In this document: positions 3,247-13,548 of the stretch, piece by piece
How positions within the stretch are numbered: the stretch's first letter is position 1
Layout of the letters: each line of letters opens with the position of its first letter
From: a virus
Direction: 5' to 3' (one strand)
Length of the DNA stretch: 32,674 nt
Virus genome (UHGV): UHGV-0193647
Notes under the pieces: generated by a model
The model's database searches: none
Told to the model about the DNA's origin: nothing
The model's input: only the letters and a program-made list of their open reading frames with translations
Made by a program: the position numbers and the translations under genes

Positions 3247-4047
3247 CTATTTCATAAGCCCTATAAACGCGGCAAACATACTTCCCAGACCACCTATTGC
3301 AGCAAATAGAGTAGCCCAAAACATACTCCTCTGGCTGCGTATGTTTTCTGTATATCGCTGCTCTGTTTTATTAAAATTAGCCAAGGTATTTACCGCTTTT
3401 CCTGTTGGCCTATACCCCAACTTAGTCCTTGAAATATCGCCATTTTCAACAAGTGAATCAAGGCACAGACGGAGTTCTTTTCTCATCCGTGATTGATCAT
3501 CGTGATAGACCCATAATCTACCAGCAACATCATTCATAACTAGTATTTCGCTGAATGGTCCTTCGCCTTCCTGCTCTCGATAGATTCTAACAACGGAGGC
3601 TAAAACAGTCATTGCATCAGTAATTTCTTGCTTACGCTGACGATAAAGAAACTTCTCACGGCTAAATCTTTTATTCTCTGCGTTAGCGAAGCGTCTAAAT
3701 CTTAGCAGCTTCAAAAAGCTCAAATCACTTAATGAATTAAATCTCAACTCATGCGCATGATAATAATAAATACCCGAAAAAGAATCACACTCAAGATCTT
3801 TTGGAAAGAGAATAGAATCAATATTGAATATATTTTCATTCGCATTCCATTTTTTAACTTTCACCTCACCATCCACAAACCTTTCGAATAAATAATCCGC
3901 ACCATCACGGTCTTTGATGTAAACAGAATACATGTTGTAATGTATGGCTTTTTCATATATCAAACTAATCCGCCCATTATCAGGGGTTCTCATCACATCG
4001 AAAATATCAAGATATTTTATAATGTTAATTTGTCTTTTATTTTTCAT
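3247..4047 (-). CDS. hypothetical AT-rich cargo protein, 266 aa, C-terminal transmembrane anchor (FWATLFAAIGGLGSMFAAFIGLM)
   Basis: Long ORF in a visibly AT-rich island between cos and tum, on the same strand as A and tum. I recognise no family. The only hydrophobic helix is at the extreme C-terminus. Confidence 0.6.
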   Translation of the reverse strand: MKNKRQINIIKYLDIFDVMRTPDNGRISLIYEKAIHYNMYSVYIKDRDGADYLFERFVDGEVKVKKWNANENIFNIDSILFPKDLECDSFSGIYYYHAHELRFNSLSDLSFLKLLRFRRFANAENKRFSREKFLYRQRKQEITDAMTVLASVVRIYREQEGEGPFSEILVMNDVAGRLWVYHDDQSRMRKELRLCLDSLVENGDISRTKLGYRPTGKAVNTLANFNKTEQRYTENIRSQRSMFWATLFAAIGGLGSMFAAFIGLMK

Positions 4048-4176
4048 TCTACGTACCCCTTTAAATTTACTTCAATACCATAGTTTGAGTGTAACTAACG
4101 CCTCGCATGCTCGTTGTTCAACCCCGCCGGCACTGAAAACAAGTTTCAGCACCGGCGGCGTTTGTAGCTATATTGG

Positions 4177-4908
4177 TTAATTATCGAGTATCGAAACGAT
4201 CTCACCGGTTCGCACGTCGACACGCGCCGCTACGGTCTGTTTTACCACCCCACCATAAGCATTAGTACCGCGAAACGTGGTTTTTACGATGGCATGTGGG
4301 TCTTTATTTAAAACCAAATGATAGACCGTTGAAACATGCTTGTAAGATGAATCATCATTCATGTTCGATTTTATTAGTTTTTCTAACGGACGATAAGAGC
4401 CATCCCAACCGCTAAAATTACCCTGAAATGCGTCAAGGTTGATTTTATTATTTAGAGATTGCGGCTCTTTCTCGAAGTCATTGAAACACCACCCCAACGC
4501 ATCACCGAGCTTTAATGCATCATCTTTAGTAAAAGTGTACTCACTCATACAAGCATAAAAAACATCAGTAGAGCTGGCCGGTACACTTTTGAAATCAACA
4601 TAGTTTTTAACGATATCGTGTCGGGCTTCTTTTGGCTCGTTGCGATATTCTTTGAGGGTTTTATCTGCATACTCAAACGTTGGCGTAGCCGGTTCCGCTT
4701 TAACCTCCAGCGCATCAGTTTTTTCAACAGGCTGGCTCTTTTCAGTCGGCCATAAAATTGAGCCAATAACGCCCAACGCGAGACAGCCACCAAGGTAAAC
4801 CGCACTGGAGCGTTTACGGTTCGGCATCCGAACCAGAGACGGCTTGATTAAACCCACTATAAAAGCAATAAAGAGTGCCAAAGATAAAAATGCTATTACG
4901 GTATCCAT
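4177..4908 (-). CDS. hypothetical AT-rich cargo membrane protein, 243 aa, N-terminal two-helix hairpin plus ~185-aa predicted periplasmic domain
   Basis: ORF begins MDTVIAFLSLALFIAFIVGLI ..KPSLVRMPNRKRSS.. AVYLGGCLALGVIGSILW and then a soluble domain. It is AT-rich. It occupies the P2 tin/old position. Confidence 0.6.
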   Translation of the reverse strand: MDTVIAFLSLALFIAFIVGLIKPSLVRMPNRKRSSAVYLGGCLALGVIGSILWPTEKSQPVEKTDALEVKAEPATPTFEYADKTLKEYRNEPKEARHDIVKNYVDFKSVPASSTDVFYACMSEYTFTKDDALKLGDALGWCFNDFEKEPQSLNNKINLDAFQGNFSGWDGSYRPLEKLIKSNMNDDSSYKHVSTVYHLVLNKDPHAIVKTTFRGTNAYGGVVKQTVAARVDVRTGEIVSILDN

Positions 4909-4990: not shown

Positions 4991-5431
4991 CTAACGCCAG
5001 CTCTCATCTTCCCATACTTCCTGAAGGATACCGTCTAACGCTTCTCGGTCTGACTCCTGGTCGAACCCAACCAGTTCTACTCCGGTCATTGACCCTTTTT
5101 TTACCGTCACTCTCGTTGATGGGAAAATTGATTCTACGCGTCGGGTCAACTCGCACTGAAAAGCATCGACAACTTGCTGCCCGATTTTTTGGTCTTTATC
5201 CAACGTGATGTTAACCCTCACTTCGCCCCCTTTTTTTAATCTTTGTTCAACAGGAGCGGGAGCGAAAACAACTGAAAAAGAGTTGTTTTTCATCAAGTTC
5301 CCTCTCGCAATTTCCGCAATTAAATTCAAAGCAATTTCACGATCTCTTTCCTGACAAACACCCTCTGTCGTCAGACGCGCAATCATCTCGACCCGTTCAA
5401 TCATGACTTGCTCGTTTAACTCTCTATCCAC
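4991..5431 (-). CDS. tum: Tum-like SOS-inducible antirepressor (DinI-family C-terminal domain)
   Basis: C-terminus ..VRVNITLDKDQKIGQQVVDAFQCELTRRVESIFP..LQEVWEDESWR is DinI-like. A GTG start at 5431 has a GGAGG SD 4 nt upstream and gives 146 aa, the length of 186 Tum. An alternative ATG at 5404 gives 137 aa. The ORF track starts at 5512, but the LexA box lies inside that extension. Confidence 0.7.
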   Translation of the reverse strand: MDRELNEQVMIERVEMIARLTTEGVCQERDREIALNLIAEIARGNLMKNNSFSVVFAPAPVEQRLKKGGEVRVNITLDKDQKIGQQVVDAFQCELTRRVESIFPSTRVTVKKGSMTGVELVGFDQESDREALDGILQEVWEDESWR

Positions 5432-5451
5432 ACAACCTCCAATACGGGATA

Positions 5452-5467
5452 CTGTATAAATATACAG
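5452..5467. promoter_or_regulatory. LexA operator (SOS box) in the tum promoter
   Basis: CTGTATAAATATACAG is a perfect CTGT-N8-ACAG palindrome with an AT-rich centre. It lies ~20 nt upstream of the tum start, the same arrangement as the LexA-controlled p95-tum of 186. Confidence 0.8.
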
Positions 5468-5546
5468 TAGCACGTATCGATAAGAATATGAAAGAAAAAA
5501 GTTACGCCACAAAAGGTCGTATGTGCATGATATGGATATGAATTAG

Positions 5547-9521: not shown

Positions 9522-10031
9522 TCAAATCAAACCGAATGACGCGCTGATGCCGCTGACGGTATCAACGACACTCGTCATTGCTGGGTTAGCCTGGAGCCTG
9601 GCCTGCAACGCCATTGCCGATAGCGACAGCATGCGAATACCCGCGTTTACGCTCGCAATCATGTTTTGCTTACGGGCCGGGGTAAGACGGTCGCCTGAAA
9701 CGGCACCGCTCGCCAGTTCGCCGAGTTCACTCATTGCGCGCATGACGTAGGATTGCAGCTTCTCTTTTGCCAGCTCGTTGACCGGCACGCATGGCAGACA
9801 ATGGATCTGCGCCAGAAAACCATCGACAAGGGTCGAGTCTTCGGTCAGGTCTGTCAGCGTCCAGATTTCGCGCGGCGTTAACTGGTGTGGCTGTTCCGGG
9901 TTGAGTTTGTTGTAAAGCGTATGCGGCTTGATACCGGCTTTATCTGCCAGCTCTTTCACGTTATGCGTGGCCGCGAATTTTCTGCATGCATCATCAAAGT
10001 GTGCATGTGACGAAACGCAAAAATCTAACAT
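9522..10031 (-). CDS. cII: CII-like lysogeny-establishment activator
   Basis: 169 aa, the same length as 186 CII, and in the same position after apl in the pR operon. Confidence 0.7.
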   Translation of the reverse strand: MLDFCVSSHAHFDDACRKFAATHNVKELADKAGIKPHTLYNKLNPEQPHQLTPREIWTLTDLTEDSTLVDGFLAQIHCLPCVPVNELAKEKLQSYVMRAMSELGELASGAVSGDRLTPARKQNMIASVNAGIRMLSLSAMALQARLQANPAMTSVVDTVSGISASFGLI

Positions 10032-10061: not shown

Positions 10062-10325
10062 TTACGCACCGATGACAAGTTGGAACCGTGAATGACCTAA
10101 AGCCTTACGCAGCTGCTCTTCTTTCCAGCGGGCGTAATAAATACGAATCGGGCCACCTGCTTTCTTGCAGCCTTTACGGATGGTGCGGGGTTCGATTGGT
10201 ACACAAGGGTTGTCGCCGGTTGTCCAGCGATAAGCAGTACGTTCAGAAACACCCTCGAGCTCTGCGAACTGTTGCAGAGTAACGATAGGTGCAGGCACTT
10301 TGATGATTGCGATTTCAGAAGCCAT
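10062..10325 (-). CDS. apl: Apl-like excisionase / lytic-switch regulator (HTH)
   Basis: From Met at 10325: MASEIAIIKVPAPIVTLQQFAELEGVSERTAYRWTTG... This is an 87-aa HTH protein, the size of 186 Apl, and it is divergent from cI. Confidence 0.75.
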   Translation of the reverse strand: MASEIAIIKVPAPIVTLQQFAELEGVSERTAYRWTTGDNPCVPIEPRTIRKGCKKAGGPIRIYYARWKEEQLRKALGHSRFQLVIGA

Positions 10326-10457
10326 GTTGCATGATTCCCATTTTGACAATGTTTGCAATCAATGGCCTCTGTTTGCCAACTTCTGCCACTGATTGCCCGA
10401 ATTAGCAACGATACTAATGCTCGATTGAATATTAGTAAATACCCAAAGGAATAAATT
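10326..10457. promoter_or_regulatory. lysis-lysogeny switch region (pR for apl-cII, pL for cI, CI/Apl operators expected)
   Basis: 132-bp AT-rich gap between divergent apl and cI. It holds repeated tgtttgc motifs and a TTGATACT-TGATACT direct repeat at the cI start. In 186 this region holds face-to-face pR and pL. Confidence 0.5.
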
Positions 10458-11033
10458 TTGATACTTGATACTCAGGTGAATAACGACGAGTTACTGGATA
10501 GAATTTGTCAAGTATATGGTTTTACTCAAAAAATCCAGCTAGCCCGGCACTTCAATATTGCAGCCAGCTCCCTACAAAATCGCTACACTCGTGGCACTGT
10601 TTCTTATGACTTCGCCGTGCAGTGCGCCTTAGAAACTGGAGCAAGCCTACTATGGCTACTTACGGGGCAAGGCTCTCAATATGATGGCAAACCGTCCCCA
10701 ACGGATCCGAAAACGATAGACTCATTCACTCTTAGTGATGGAAAGCTCGAAGAAAATTCACCATTGAGTATTGACTCCGGTTTTTTTAGCAAGCAAATGT
10801 CAAAAGGCATTGCTGTTCGCGCCGATGGAAAGCTGCACTTCATAGAGCAAGATGCCTCACTTTCTGATGGCCTTTGGTTGGTTGATATTGAGGGGGCTAC
10901 CAGCATCAGAGAATTGACGCTCCTACCAGGCAAAAAGCTACACGTTGCGGGCGGAAAAGTACCGTTTGAATGTAGGATTGACGAAATAAAACTGATTGGC
11001 CGTGTAATTGGTATATATAGCGATGTCAACTAA
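10458..11033 (+). CDS. cI: CI immunity repressor (186 CI-like)
   Basis: 191 aa. ..LLDRICQVYGFTQKIQLARHFNIAASSLQNRYTRGTVSYDFAVQCALETGASLLWLLTG.. and a C-terminus ..LWLVDIEGATSIRELTLLPGKKLHVAGGKVPFECRIDEIKLIGRVIGIYSDVN. I recognise both as 186 CI-like. The start is TTG, with an AAGGAA SD 6 nt upstream and an in-frame TAA just before it. Confidence 0.8.
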   Translation: MILDTQVNNDELLDRICQVYGFTQKIQLARHFNIAASSLQNRYTRGTVSYDFAVQCALETGASLLWLLTGQGSQYDGKPSPTDPKTIDSFTLSDGKLEENSPLSIDSGFFSKQMSKGIAVRADGKLHFIEQDASLSDGLWLVDIEGATSIRELTLLPGKKLHVAGGKVPFECRIDEIKLIGRVIGIYSDVN

Positions 11034-11065
11034 TCCCTATATCCACGATGAATAAGGAAACTATC

Positions 11066-11596
11066 ATGGATACTATAATTCCGATTTTGTTTTTAGGTCT
11101 GTCTTTTTTTTCGATGATTACTTATTTTAAGTCACCGGAAAAATTAGCAATGCGAGTGGCTAAAGGAGTTGCAGCTTTTCTTGCTTCTATTGCTGCCTTT
11201 GGGGCCTTTTTAGGTGGTGATTATGCACTATCACTTCCTATCGCCTTTATTGTTCTTTTCCTGACAATTCGCCAGTTAAAAACATCTAAAACCCTATCAT
11301 CTGTAACACATCAACCAATCTCTTTTAGCACACCAAAAGATCCTATAAGTAAGCGTAAGCCCGATAGTGAGTTTAGAAATATTTCATTTGAGTACACAGA
11401 CTTAAATGGCAATTCAACTCATAGAGAAGTTGATGTAAAAGAGATTACTGAACAACACATTACAGGATATTGTCATTCACGCAGGCAACTAAGGACCTTC
11501 CGTTTAGACCGAATTGATAATAGTGAGATTGTCGTCCGTGATACGGGCGAGTTAATCAATGTCTATGACTGGATTGTCCAGCTATATGGAGAATGA
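11066..11596 (+). CDS. membrane-anchored WYL-domain protein (3 predicted TM helices plus C-terminal WYL-like domain)
   Basis: AT-rich ORF between cI and int. The ORF track starts at 11048, but the Met at 11066 has an AAGGAA SD. TM helices: IIPILFLGLSFFSMITYF, VAAFLASIAAFGAFLGG and LSLPIAFIVLFLTI. C-terminal ..ISFEYTDLNGNSTHREVDVKEI..GYCHSRRQLRTFRLDRIDNSEIV matches the WYL-domain hallmark (..Y.d..G..t.R.v.P......w.l.ayc..r...RtFRldRI..). Confidence 0.6.
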   Translation: MDTIIPILFLGLSFFSMITYFKSPEKLAMRVAKGVAAFLASIAAFGAFLGGDYALSLPIAFIVLFLTIRQLKTSKTLSSVTHQPISFSTPKDPISKRKPDSEFRNISFEYTDLNGNSTHREVDVKEITEQHITGYCHSRRQLRTFRLDRIDNSEIVVRDTGELINVYDWIVQLYGE

Positions 11597-11605
11597 GGTT
11601 TACTC

Positions 11606-12604
11606 ATGACCGTTCGAAAAAACCCCGATGGCGGTTGGATTTGTGAACTCTACCCAAACGGTGCGAAAGGCAAGCGCATCAGAAAGAAATTCGCCACTAA
11701 AGGCGAGGCGCTGGCGTTCGAACAGTACACCGTTCAAAACCCTTGGCAGGAAGAAAAGGAAGACAGGCGCACATTAAAAGAGCTGGTTGACTCATGGTAT
11801 AGCGCTCATGGCATTACCCTGAAAGACGGCTTAAAACGCCAGTTAGCGATGCACCATGCTTTTGAGTGTATGGGCGAACCTCTTGCACGCGATTTCGATG
11901 CACAGATGTTTTCCCGCTACCGAGAAAAACGGTTAAAAGGTGAGTACGCCCGTTCAAACAGAGTGAAAGAGGTATCGCCTCGCACGCTTAATCTTGAGCT
12001 GGCCTATTTCCGGGCAGTATTCAATGAGCTAAACCGTCTCGGAGAATGGAAGGGGGAAAACCCACTGAAAAATATGCGCCCATTCCGCACAGAAGAAATG
12101 GAAATGGCCTGGCTAACTCACGACCAAATTTCGCAACTGCTCGGAGAGTGTAAACGGCATGACCACCCTGATTTAGAAACCGTGGTAAGAATTTGTCTCG
12201 CCACTGGCGCACGGTGGTCTGAGGCCGAGAGTCTGAGAAAAAGCCAGCTTGCGAAATACAAAATCACATACACCAACACGAAAGGCAGAAAAAACCGCAC
12301 CGTCCCAATCAGCACAGAGCTCTATGAGTCTCTGCCTGATGATAAAAAAGGCCGGTTGTTTAGTGATTGTTATGGCGCGTTCCGGTCAGCTCTGGAAAGA
12401 ACAGGCATCGAACTACCAGCAGGACAGCTTACCCATGTTTTGCGCCACACCTTCGCCAGCCACTTTATGATGAATGGAGGCAACATTCTTGTTCTACAGA
12501 GGATATTAGGACATACAGATATAAAAATGACCATGCGTTATGCTCATTTTTCCCCTGACCATTTAGAAGATGCTAAACTATTAAATCCATTGGTAAAAAA
12601 ATGA
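11606..12604 (+). CDS. int: tyrosine integrase (186/P2 family)
   Basis: 332 aa. The N-terminus MTVRKNPDGGWICELYPNGAKGKRIRKKFATKGEALAFEQY.. is 186 Int-like. The C-terminal catalytic region has ..HVLRHTFAS.. and ..LGHTDIKMTMRYAHF.., the R-H-R-Y signature. Confidence 0.9.
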   Translation: MTVRKNPDGGWICELYPNGAKGKRIRKKFATKGEALAFEQYTVQNPWQEEKEDRRTLKELVDSWYSAHGITLKDGLKRQLAMHHAFECMGEPLARDFDAQMFSRYREKRLKGEYARSNRVKEVSPRTLNLELAYFRAVFNELNRLGEWKGENPLKNMRPFRTEEMEMAWLTHDQISQLLGECKRHDHPDLETVVRICLATGARWSEAESLRKSQLAKYKITYTNTKGRKNRTVPISTELYESLPDDKKGRLFSDCYGAFRSALERTGIELPAGQLTHVLRHTFASHFMMNGGNILVLQRILGHTDIKMTMRYAHFSPDHLEDAKLLNPLVKK

Positions 12605-13374
12605 CGACACTAGAAAAAGCAATATATAATATATCTAAACACAAGGCTATCTCTATTTTCCTTTTTATGGTAATAGCATTGATATTCCTATCACCTTTAT
12701 TATTATATTTTCATCAGTTCCATAACAACCTATCATCTCAACCTGAAAAATGGTCATTTTTTGGTTCTTTCATTGGTGGGATTTACGGACCTATAGTTAC
12801 ATTAATTAGTGTATTTGTATTAGTAATCACAGTCATAGAAATCAATCAATCAAATAAAGCAAGTATTAACGAGGCAAGAAACACGAATTATGTAAGTGAG
12901 TTGATAACCTTATCAGAAATCCTTAATAGATCTATAGATAATAACATTTACATTAAAAATGACAGAAATTATTTTTTCAACAACCTAAACAACATTGCAT
13001 TTAATAAAATAAAGAGCAAGCCCCATGTAAATAGTGAAGTGATTTTAAAGACCTGTACACGAAAATTCGTAGAAAATGAGAGGGTTTTATTTGAAAATGA
13101 GATTGATATTCTGCATGAAATCTTTTCTAGAATTGAAAGCATCCCTAACGCGGAATTAGCTGAGAGGGCAAAAGGTATTTTTAGGGGGGTTATACGTAAT
13201 AATGAAAGGTTTTGGATTGAATGTTACATACGTCGTTTTAGGGAAGACCTTGTTCCCTACCTATTGTCATGGAACACGTTTAGCAAGACCCCGCTAAAAC
13301 TTCTAAGTCTAATACCTGAACCATCGCAAGAAGATGGCGATAAAGTGGCGATGGAAATGGCGGATAATGGGTAA
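12601..13374 (+). CDS. hypothetical AT-rich membrane protein (257 aa), translationally coupled to int, adjacent to attP
   Basis: The ATG overlaps the int stop (ATGA). Two N-terminal TM helices: ISIFLFMVIALIFLSPLLLYF and FFGSFIGGIYGPIVTLISVFVLVITVI. Then a ~170-aa soluble domain. Very AT-rich. No family recognised. Confidence 0.6.
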   Translation: MTTLEKAIYNISKHKAISIFLFMVIALIFLSPLLLYFHQFHNNLSSQPEKWSFFGSFIGGIYGPIVTLISVFVLVITVIEINQSNKASINEARNTNYVSELITLSEILNRSIDNNIYIKNDRNYFFNNLNNIAFNKIKSKPHVNSEVILKTCTRKFVENERVLFENEIDILHEIFSRIESIPNAELAERAKGIFRGVIRNNERFWIECYIRRFREDLVPYLLSWNTFSKTPLKLLSLIPEPSQEDGDKVAMEMADNG

Positions 13375-13445
13375 TCGCTGGCAAACAAAGGCAATCTATA
13401 TCAATGATAAATAACGCAAACTATTGATTTTCAGTTGTTCCTACA

Positions 13446-13494
13446 GGAACTCATAATCGCTTGGTCGTTGGTTCAAACCCAACAGGGGCCACCA
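13446..13494 (+). other. attP: attP core: 3' portion of a tRNA-Ile2(CAU)/Met-like gene (anticodon loop to CCA), not a complete tRNA
   Basis: ..aactcataatcgcttggtcgttggttcaaacccaacaggggccacca has a CTCATAA anticodon loop, a GTTGG/TTCAAAC/CCAAC T-arm, AGGGGCC and ACCA. It closely resembles the 3' half of enterobacterial tRNA-Ile2 (ileX/ileY). No matching 5' acceptor strand or D-arm is upstream. It lies between the int-side ORF and B, as attP does in 186. Confidence 0.7.
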
Positions 13495-13522
13495 AATTTT
13501 AGCTTTAAAATCATATAATTAA

Positions 13523-13548
13523 GCCACTCACGCGAGTGGCTTTTTTCT
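13523..13548 (+). terminator. rho-independent terminator (end of cI-int lysogenic operon)
   Basis: gccactcacgcgagtggc hairpin followed by tttttt. Confidence 0.6.

Follow-up and report, generated by a model that had tools for sequence, protein, structure and literature searches.

A membrane-anchored WYL-domain protein encoded between the immunity repressor and integrase genes of a 186-like phage: a candidate protector of the lysogen

To our knowledge, WYL domains have almost exclusively been described as the ligand sensors of transcription factors that activate defence or DNA-damage genes. The closest described proteins are regulators such as BrxR, CapW, PafBC and DriD, which combine a winged helix-turn-helix (wHTH), a WYL and a WCX domain. 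We analysed the UHGV virus genome UHGV-0193647 (32,674 nucleotides, hereafter called the window), which is the complete genome of a 186-like temperate phage (P2 family) of the Klebsiella type. A gene of this phage located between the immunity repressor gene cI and the integrase gene int (11066..11596, + strand) codes for a protein of 176 residues, in which three predicted transmembrane (TM) helices precede a C-terminal WYL domain. This protein, hereafter called TM-WYL, resembles the above regulators in that its WYL domain is homologous to theirs, with conserved groove residues, and that they provide its best profile and fold matches. Unlike them, it has neither a wHTH nor a WCX domain, lacks the RWHVR motif and harbours three membrane helices at its N-terminus. 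As it contains no helix-turn-helix (HTH), WCX or enzyme domain, TM-WYL cannot be a transcription regulator in the manner of BrxR, CapW, PafBC or DriD. It represents a known sensor domain that is detached from any DNA-binding part and anchored in the inner membrane instead, and its repressor-linked setting is new.

WYL proteins without an obvious HTH domain are found in other conflicts involving phages or their satellites, namely WYL-Kiwa in P4 hotspots and the Cas13-associated WYL1. These proteins are soluble and accompany a multi-gene system, whereas TM-WYL is membrane-anchored and has no conserved partner. The fusion of a ligand-binding domain to membrane helices is a feature of Cam1, TM-CARF, TM-SAVED and Cap15, which TM-WYL resembles in logic only. 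Cam1-type effectors have another sensor fold, and a long disordered linker is found in TM-WYL instead of their tight coupling; moreover, no signal-producing partner (CRISPR type III, CD-NTase) was conserved near the TM-WYL loci that we checked. Makarova 2014 (PMC4012209) treated CARF and WYL as a pair of analogous sensors; a membrane-associated CARF is listed there, as are WYL fusions, with no membrane form among the latter.

Several analyses converge on the identity of the C-terminal domain, which a first-pass annotation made from the letters alone had assigned to the WYL family. The core of the domain, predicted to form an Sm-like beta-barrel, covers residues 104-154 (11375..11527, + strand). 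The Pfam WYL profile (PF13280), whose curated cut-off is 21.8 bits, matched the whole protein with 30.2 bits (E=4.5e-7) and the domain alone with 33.2 bits, and it also matched 55 of the 58 family members. WYL models of PADLOC matched at 1.6e-8 and 7.7e-8, and comparison of a domain profile with solved structures retrieved PafBC, PafC, CapW and BrxR. The full-length AlphaFold model is weak over the WYL part, with a predicted local distance difference test (pLDDT) score of ~60, and a structure model of the domain alone was run again with the 58-sequence alignment. DriD and PafBC are among the fold matches, in which Sm, SH3 and Tudor folds also appear. Profile score, fold and groove residues all place the domain in the WYL superfamily, in agreement with the initial assignment.

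Makarova 2014 (PMC4012209) predicted that a cysteine and basic residues line the ligand groove of WYL domains. Our alignment shows no variation at R120, C136, R139, R143 and R149 and hardly any at R146 (all numbers refer to the 176-residue protein). Other invariant positions are F108, Y110, E121, D123, G134, H137, F145, D148, I150 and E154 in the core, followed by G161, E162, V166, D168, W169 and L173 in a family-specific C-terminal extension (residues 155-176, 11528..11593, + strand). This extension, made up of a strand and a helix (E70-72 and H73-81 in the domain model), is conserved across three alignments. Its motif reads D-T-G-E-L-I-N-V-Y-D-W here and D-x-(T/S)-G-E ... W family-wide, and the 'TGE...W' signature is present in Pseudomonas-type members too. 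With ~22 residues past the WYL core, the extension is far shorter than the WCX domain of transcription regulators.

Small beta-barrels such as the Sm, SH3 and Tudor folds found among the matches also mediate protein contacts. The WYL domain might thus be a protein-binding or oligomerisation module within a membrane protein that alters host physiology (envelope, stress tolerance) by lysogenic conversion, and secreted proteins are indeed part of the other cargo found between cI and int. We nevertheless consider this explanation improbable, given the invariance of the cysteine and basic groove residues and the fact that most of the family is found in phage immunity regions.

The N-terminal part of TM-WYL (residues 1-71, 11066..11278, + strand) forms a membrane module, as proposed initially. 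A Kyte-Doolittle scan delineated hydrophobic segments at residues 1-21, 31-50 and 53-71, and the full-length AlphaFold model shows three helices with pLDDT scores of 84-91. These hydrophobic helices stand in place of a DNA-binding domain; no HTH family matched the protein. All seven nearby Lys and Arg residues are located in the first loop or just past the third helix, which puts seven charges inside and none outside. From this distribution, the positive-inside rule predicts that the N-terminus faces out and that the WYL domain is cytoplasmic. Between the two modules lies a polar and basic linker (residues 72-103, 11279..11374, + strand) with pLDDT values <50, predicted to be disordered and flexible, whose length differs by tens of residues between homologues. 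In the wider family, unrelated modules of one, two or three helices replace the membrane part.

The three parts of the protein evolve under different constraints. Ratios of non-synonymous to synonymous substitution rates (dN/dS) were obtained from more divergent relatives, as three nearly identical loci offered too few substitutions. They amount to 0.04-0.13 for the WYL domain (residues 104-176), 0.2-0.3 for the membrane module (residues 1-72) and about 0.4-1.4 for the linker (residues 73-103). The WYL domain is therefore under strong purifying selection, while the linker evolves almost neutrally. Values of dN/dS <1 for the WYL domain and the TM part alike, together with conservation in different genera, ruled out that the open reading frame (ORF) is spurious or non-coding. 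In a comparison with a Klebsiella relative whose cI and int genes are nearly the same, nucleotide identity is 35-63% over the 5' two-thirds of the gene and returns to 78-88% over the WYL part. Altogether, the WYL domain and its short helix appear to represent the conserved business end of the protein, the membrane part an exchangeable anchor and the linker a leash. Because the linker is disordered and nearly neutral, and because TM modules with one, two or three helices are swapped, strict allosteric gating is unlikely, contrary to the early proposal that the sensor gates an exclusion or abortive response.

Regarding gene expression, the first-pass annotation had placed the gene correctly, from the ATG at 11066 to the stop codon at 11596, and the peptide strings that it quoted are correct as well. 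An alternative in-frame ATG at 11048 would yield a 182-residue protein, with six residues more. The start at 11066 is the better one, since an AAGGA Shine-Dalgarno sequence (11053..11057, + strand) is found 8 nt upstream and since NCBI annotates an identical 176-residue 'WYL domain-containing protein [Klebsiella]' on 44 contigs. The preceding gene, cI (10458..11033, + strand), is the first gene of the lysogenic operon. It codes for an immunity repressor of the 186 type (Pfam Phage_CI_repr, 2e-23; Phage_CI_C, 3.2e-22) that is 92-97% identical to those of 186-like prophages of Klebsiella and E. coli, and 32 nt separate it from the TM-WYL gene. The next gene of the operon, int (11606..12604, + strand), encodes a tyrosine integrase (Pfam Int_N, 8e-34; Phage_integrase, 3.7e-25). 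At the junction of the two genes (11595..11608, + strand), the GAGG ribosome-binding sequence of int, whose ATG is at 11606, overlaps the TM-WYL stop codon. Neither a promoter-like nor a terminator-like site was predicted between cI and the TM-WYL gene, and therefore the two genes are likely co-transcribed in the lysogen. In phage 186, the pL and pE promoters transcribe cI-int. By analogy, TM-WYL is presumably made together with CI in the lysogen, from pL/pE, and the expression in the lysogen proposed at the outset is likely, with pL as the putative promoter.

The interval between cI and int is normally very short. In phage 186 and in hundreds of E. coli prophages, 3-30 nt separate the cI stop codon from the int start codon, and cI abuts int in about 70 of 80 IMG/VR relatives of the window integrase. 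In the window, about 570 nt are found exactly between the two genes. The hypothesis that TM-WYL is a conserved 186 gene product at this position, which had been named as the finding that would undermine the proposal, is ruled out, as cI abuts int in 186 and most of its relatives. Consistent with its description as AT-rich cargo inserted between cI and int, the TM-WYL gene has a GC content of 37.5%, compared with 52.4% for the window. Among 5,426 complete E. coli genomes, none gave a nucleotide match to the gene; at the DNA level, sequenced E. coli are thus practically devoid of it. TM-WYL is thus an accessory gene, and the cI-int slot is a small cargo hotspot. In other phages, the slot harbours two different signal-peptide proteins (loci L120 and L130), a 188-residue bPH_3-SHOCT (bacterial PH) protein (four loci, L126, L127, L129 and L131, at about 3430-4000) or a 309-residue protein in which a middle domain separates two TM helices from a WYL domain (locus L125). 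The cI-int slot of K139-like Vibrio phages was reported to be a defence hotspot (Rousset 2022, PMC9122126).

We favour the hypothesis that TM-WYL is a prophage-encoded 'moron' consisting of a single gene, which shields the lysogen from other invading elements, and we grant it an even chance. The reasons are its repressor-adjoining, AT-rich, accessory and mosaic niche and the presence of defence or exclusion cargo in the same slot elsewhere. A role against incoming phages had been put forward from the start, and it remains the most plausible function in view of this niche and of the WYL domain. Exclusion genes that are located beside the repressor gene and expressed in the lysogen include lambda rexAB, BstA, Tuc2009 sie2009 and TP-J34 ltp, to which K139 glo can be added. 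They are accessory, frequently occupy the repressor-integrase interval and often code for membrane-associated proteins. TM-WYL shares the position and accessory status of the Sie2009/Ltp/Glo-type genes, and probably their expression in the lysogen. It has no sequence or fold relationship with these exclusion proteins, however, and RexAB consists of two proteins. Sie2009, Ltp and Glo also differ from TM-WYL in that they act outside the cytoplasmic membrane, whereas the conserved domain of TM-WYL is predicted to be cytoplasmic.

According to the mechanism that we propose, TM-WYL would be a small inner-membrane protein made constitutively with CI in the lysogen. Its N-terminal helices would serve as an anchor, and the floppy linker of ~30 residues would hold the WYL domain at the cytoplasmic face of the membrane. 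There, the domain would bind a nucleic acid or nucleotide that a superinfecting phage has made or injected. Several tethered domains binding to one polymer might hold the nucleic acid of the invader at the membrane, resulting in exclusion. Alternatively, clustering of the helices might damage or depolarise the membrane and cause abortive infection, in the manner of Cam1, in which a CARF sensor fused to TM helices depolarises the membrane. WYL1 binds single-stranded RNA, and the WYL domain of CapW was reported to bind single-stranded DNA (ssDNA) (PMC11662680). DriD and PafBC, both among the fold matches, also have ssDNA-binding WYL domains. The invariant cysteine and basic groove residues similarly argue for ligand binding by TM-WYL.

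A number of observations weigh against a protective function. Classical superinfection-exclusion (Sie) proteins work at the outer side of the membrane, and the domain of interest is predicted to be cytoplasmic here. PADLOC-DB v2 gave no system-defining match, with only the generic WYL accessory models PDLC01457, PDLC03787 and PDLC01652 matching over the WYL domain. The RWHVR motif by which CapW contacts ssDNA aligns to EQHIT in TM-WYL, both arginines being lost, and hence ssDNA binding in the manner of CapW is not assured; this loss does not exclude ssDNA binding, since PafBC also lacks these arginines. The long, neutral and disordered linker and the swapping of TM modules argue against a ligand-gated pore of the Cam1 type. 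In the Pseudomonas and E. coli P2-like lineages, TM-WYL looks more constant than the cargo beyond it, which would also fit a role in the lysogeny module. Finally, the resident phage would also make ssDNA intermediates upon induction, and self-targeting would then call for an explanation.

The same features could be accounted for by a different target, with TM-WYL intercepting incoming ssDNA to counter conjugation, transformation or filamentous phages rather than tailed double-stranded DNA phages. A predicted nucleic-acid-binding domain leashed to the cytoplasmic face of the inner membrane would be well suited to this task, and the ssDNA binding of the CapW, DriD and PafBC WYL domains is in line with it. 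So is the fact that stand-alone relatives are encoded between the genes for primase and helicase in lytic phages of Stenotrophomonas, which suggests a nucleic-acid-related role for this WYL subtype. The case is purely inferential, no context links the gene to conjugation systems and the ssDNA contacts of the CapW RWHVR motif are not conserved; we therefore regard interception of incoming ssDNA as improbable, to the same degree as lysogenic conversion. The stand-alone relatives in question are WYL proteins of ~69 residues, found in the primase-helicase interval of lytic Autographiviridae (Stenotrophomonas phage StenM_174, locus L050 at 3992-4201, and 8 related phages). They are up to 50% identical to the WYL domain of TM-WYL.

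Another possibility involving ssDNA is that of an anti-defence decoy, in which the prophage WYL domain would soak up the ssDNA-fragment ligand that derepresses host CBASS (through CapW) or BREX (through BrxR), thereby shielding the induced prophage. CapW-driven expression of CBASS blocks induction of a lambda prophage and depends on ssDNA binding by the WYL domain of CapW (PMC11662680), and a protein expressed with the repressor would already be present at induction. There is no obvious use for a membrane anchor in this scenario, yet the anchor is kept in most relatives that we checked and is under purifying selection; the CapW ssDNA-contact motif is also missing. A decoy function thus appears very improbable, more so than interception of incoming ssDNA.

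Should TM-WYL prove to act by exclusion or abortive infection, the catalogue of defences would gain a very compact module made of a single gene (about 150-220 residues). The protein would also offer a direct route to what WYL domains sense in infection, with output and sensor in one protein. The question is cheap to address, given that a single small gene is involved, that Klebsiella, E. coli and Yersinia can serve as hosts and that an isolated phage, Yersinia phage vB_YenM_201.16, carries a 69% identical copy annotated as hypothetical.

We characterized the distribution of the family at several levels of divergence. Close homologues of TM-WYL form only 34 clusters, all from Enterobacterales and named 'WYL domain-containing' or 'hypothetical'. 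A WYL-domain profile run against 1.84 billion cluster representatives gave 1362 matches at E<=1e-3, including 130 at E<=1e-10. Among the top matches listed, 121 of the 145 that we checked harbour one to three hydrophobic helices upstream of a C-terminal WYL domain. Of the other 24, many are short (60-120 residues) fragments or stand-alone domains. The TM-WYL architecture is therefore widespread rather than unique. Two additional searches were of limited scope: a domain-profile scan of species-representative genomes returned a single locus, the degenerate patterns being too specific, and a profile search of 90%-clustered proteins returned mainly short proteins and provided names and contexts rather than a census.

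The first-pass annotation had considered the arrangement undescribed. This view holds insofar as we found no paper describing TM-WYL or membrane-anchored WYL proteins in the literature that we could search. It does not hold as regards rarity, in light of the above proportions and of the WYL label that NCBI already gives to the protein.

The immediate genetic environment of close homologues is conserved. In all 43 close loci collected from NCBI, Logan and IMG/VR, cII and apl are followed by cI, TM-WYL and int in this order. In these loci, the identity to the window proteins ranges from 26 to 97% for cI, from 48 to 98% for int and from 31 to 92% for TM-WYL, and the identity of TM-WYL tracks neither that of cI nor that of int. 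Its only constant neighbours are cI (or another repressor gene) and int, and the genes downstream of int vary by locus.

To look further, we used a Pseudomonas-type profile on IMG/VR, which yielded 76 loci. Of these, 74 were analysed and the WYL ORF was found in 72, with a TM helix in 63. An ORF on the same strand ends <=300 nt upstream at 69 loci. The 65 distinct upstream proteins, mostly of the Cro/CI HTH, S24 or Phage_CI_repr kinds, matched the Pfam families HTH_3 (32), HTH_31 (31), HTH_19 (12), Peptidase_S24 (11) and Phage_CI_repr (10), these numbers being counts per family. Hallmark genes of the P2 family (gpD, gpU, Ogr, GpA or primase) are present within 5 kb at 62 of the 74 loci. The picture is consistent, with a repressor gene followed by TM-WYL in the lysogeny modules of Peduoviridae. 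TM-WYL thus represents a large family with a consistent address, right after the P2-family immunity repressor, in Enterobacterales, Pseudomonas and beyond.

Distant members with one to three TM helices likewise follow the repressor gene in E. coli, Pseudomonas and Thiomicrospira prophages, and individual loci illustrate the variations on this theme. In an E. coli P2-like prophage, a 144-residue, single-helix form starts 4 nt past the gene of an HTH_31/HTH_19 protein. In P. leptonychotis, a form with one TM helix starts 4 nt past a small ORF without Pfam match. In a P. aeruginosa prophage, a 212-residue protein with a weak BRCT match (locus L047, 6246-6884) is encoded between a small repressor-like ORF and a WYL gene with one TM helix; BRCT-WYL fusions were listed by Makarova 2014 (PMC4012209). 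A form with two to three helices directly follows an S24 repressor gene in a Thiomicrospira prophage, and a Burkholderia member is located in a prophage early region, where it does not adjoin the repressor gene. In the above E. coli prophage (loci L044/L045/L046, 7001-8837), the next genes code for a ThsB-type TIR protein (133 residues) and a caspase-like Peptidase_C14 protein (321 residues). Together, they are reminiscent of a defence system of the TIR plus caspase type, and the region downstream of the repressor gene therefore looks like a defence hotspot in the E. coli prophage too.

The constancy of this address raises the possibility that TM-WYL is a part of the lysogeny switch. The tethered WYL domain would sense ssDNA or a damage or infection signal and modulate the repressor, the integrase and excision or induction, for instance by sequestering a factor at the membrane. 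In several P2-family lineages, the gene is found directly past genes for CI-type repressors of unrelated families (186 cI, HTH_3/HTH_31, S24) while the genes beyond it vary, and in the window it is translationally adjacent to int. Furthermore, the WYL regulators PafBC, DriD and CapW are DNA-damage sensors. Nevertheless, most 186-like phages, 186 included, have a functional switch despite lacking the gene, and in the phage of the window a Tum antirepressor is already present for SOS induction. TM-WYL has no HTH and no protease domain, it shows no visible residue co-variation with the type of cI and its identity is independent of cI identity. Like a typical moron, it is AT-rich and subject to mosaic replacement. 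On balance, we deem a role in the switch unlikely. A related and slightly less likely view is that TM-WYL is a conserved third component of P2-family immunity regions, functionally coupled to the adjoining CI-type repressor. As a tethered sensor of single-stranded nucleic acid, it would either inform the lysis-lysogeny switch of superinfection or DNA damage or act at the membrane to enforce immunity, which would make it more than exchangeable defence cargo. Coupling to the repressor would mean that the lysogeny switch of a classic phage family has an input that has gone unrecognised.

The first-pass annotation had also suggested that TM-WYL cooperates with a 257-residue membrane protein encoded downstream of int (orf257; 12601-13374, + strand). 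This gene has a GC content of 32.7%, its start overlaps the int stop codon (ATGA) and its product has two N-terminal hydrophobic helices. It is 99% identical to a hypothetical protein of Klebsiella oxytoca (UniRef name 'DUF4760') and has only 12 homologues, all hypothetical; it gave no match in Pfam, PADLOC or the phage database. As orf257 was absent from all of the 43 other TM-WYL loci checked, where the downstream genes vary, and is thus never co-conserved with TM-WYL, a partnership between the two proteins was rejected. This gene looks like a second, independent piece of cargo.

The remainder of the window is that of a 186-like phage, with late genes ~95% identical to those of Klebsiella phage ST147-VIM1phi7.1. 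On the - strand, cII (9522-10031) and apl (10062-10358) precede the lysogenic operon. Farther away on the same strand, a 173-residue protein (4991-5512) with a C-terminal DinI-like domain (6e-16) corresponds to a Tum-type antirepressor of 186, and the phage is therefore probably SOS-inducible. Two ORFs of 266 and 243 residues (3247-4047 and 4177-4908, both - strand) lie between the portal gene and tum, an interval that corresponds to the known P2 'old' defence hotspot. Neither had a match in Pfam or PADLOC, and they are possible cargo or defence genes.

Downstream of cI on the + strand, the first strong intrinsic-terminator-like site identified by a terminator scan is a hairpin with a 9-bp stem and a T run (13521..13542). 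It is likely to mark the end of the cI/TM-WYL/int/orf257 transcript, and ogr/B and gene D are located beyond it on the - strand. Between orf257 and this hairpin, a stretch resembling the 3' part of a tRNA is found (about 13440-13495, + strand), in which an anticodon loop (CTCATAA), a T-arm (GTTGG/CCAAC) and a CCA-bearing acceptor end can be recognised. No complete tRNA was found by ARAGORN at this position, which is probably the attP core that would restore a tRNA with a CAT anticodon upon integration.

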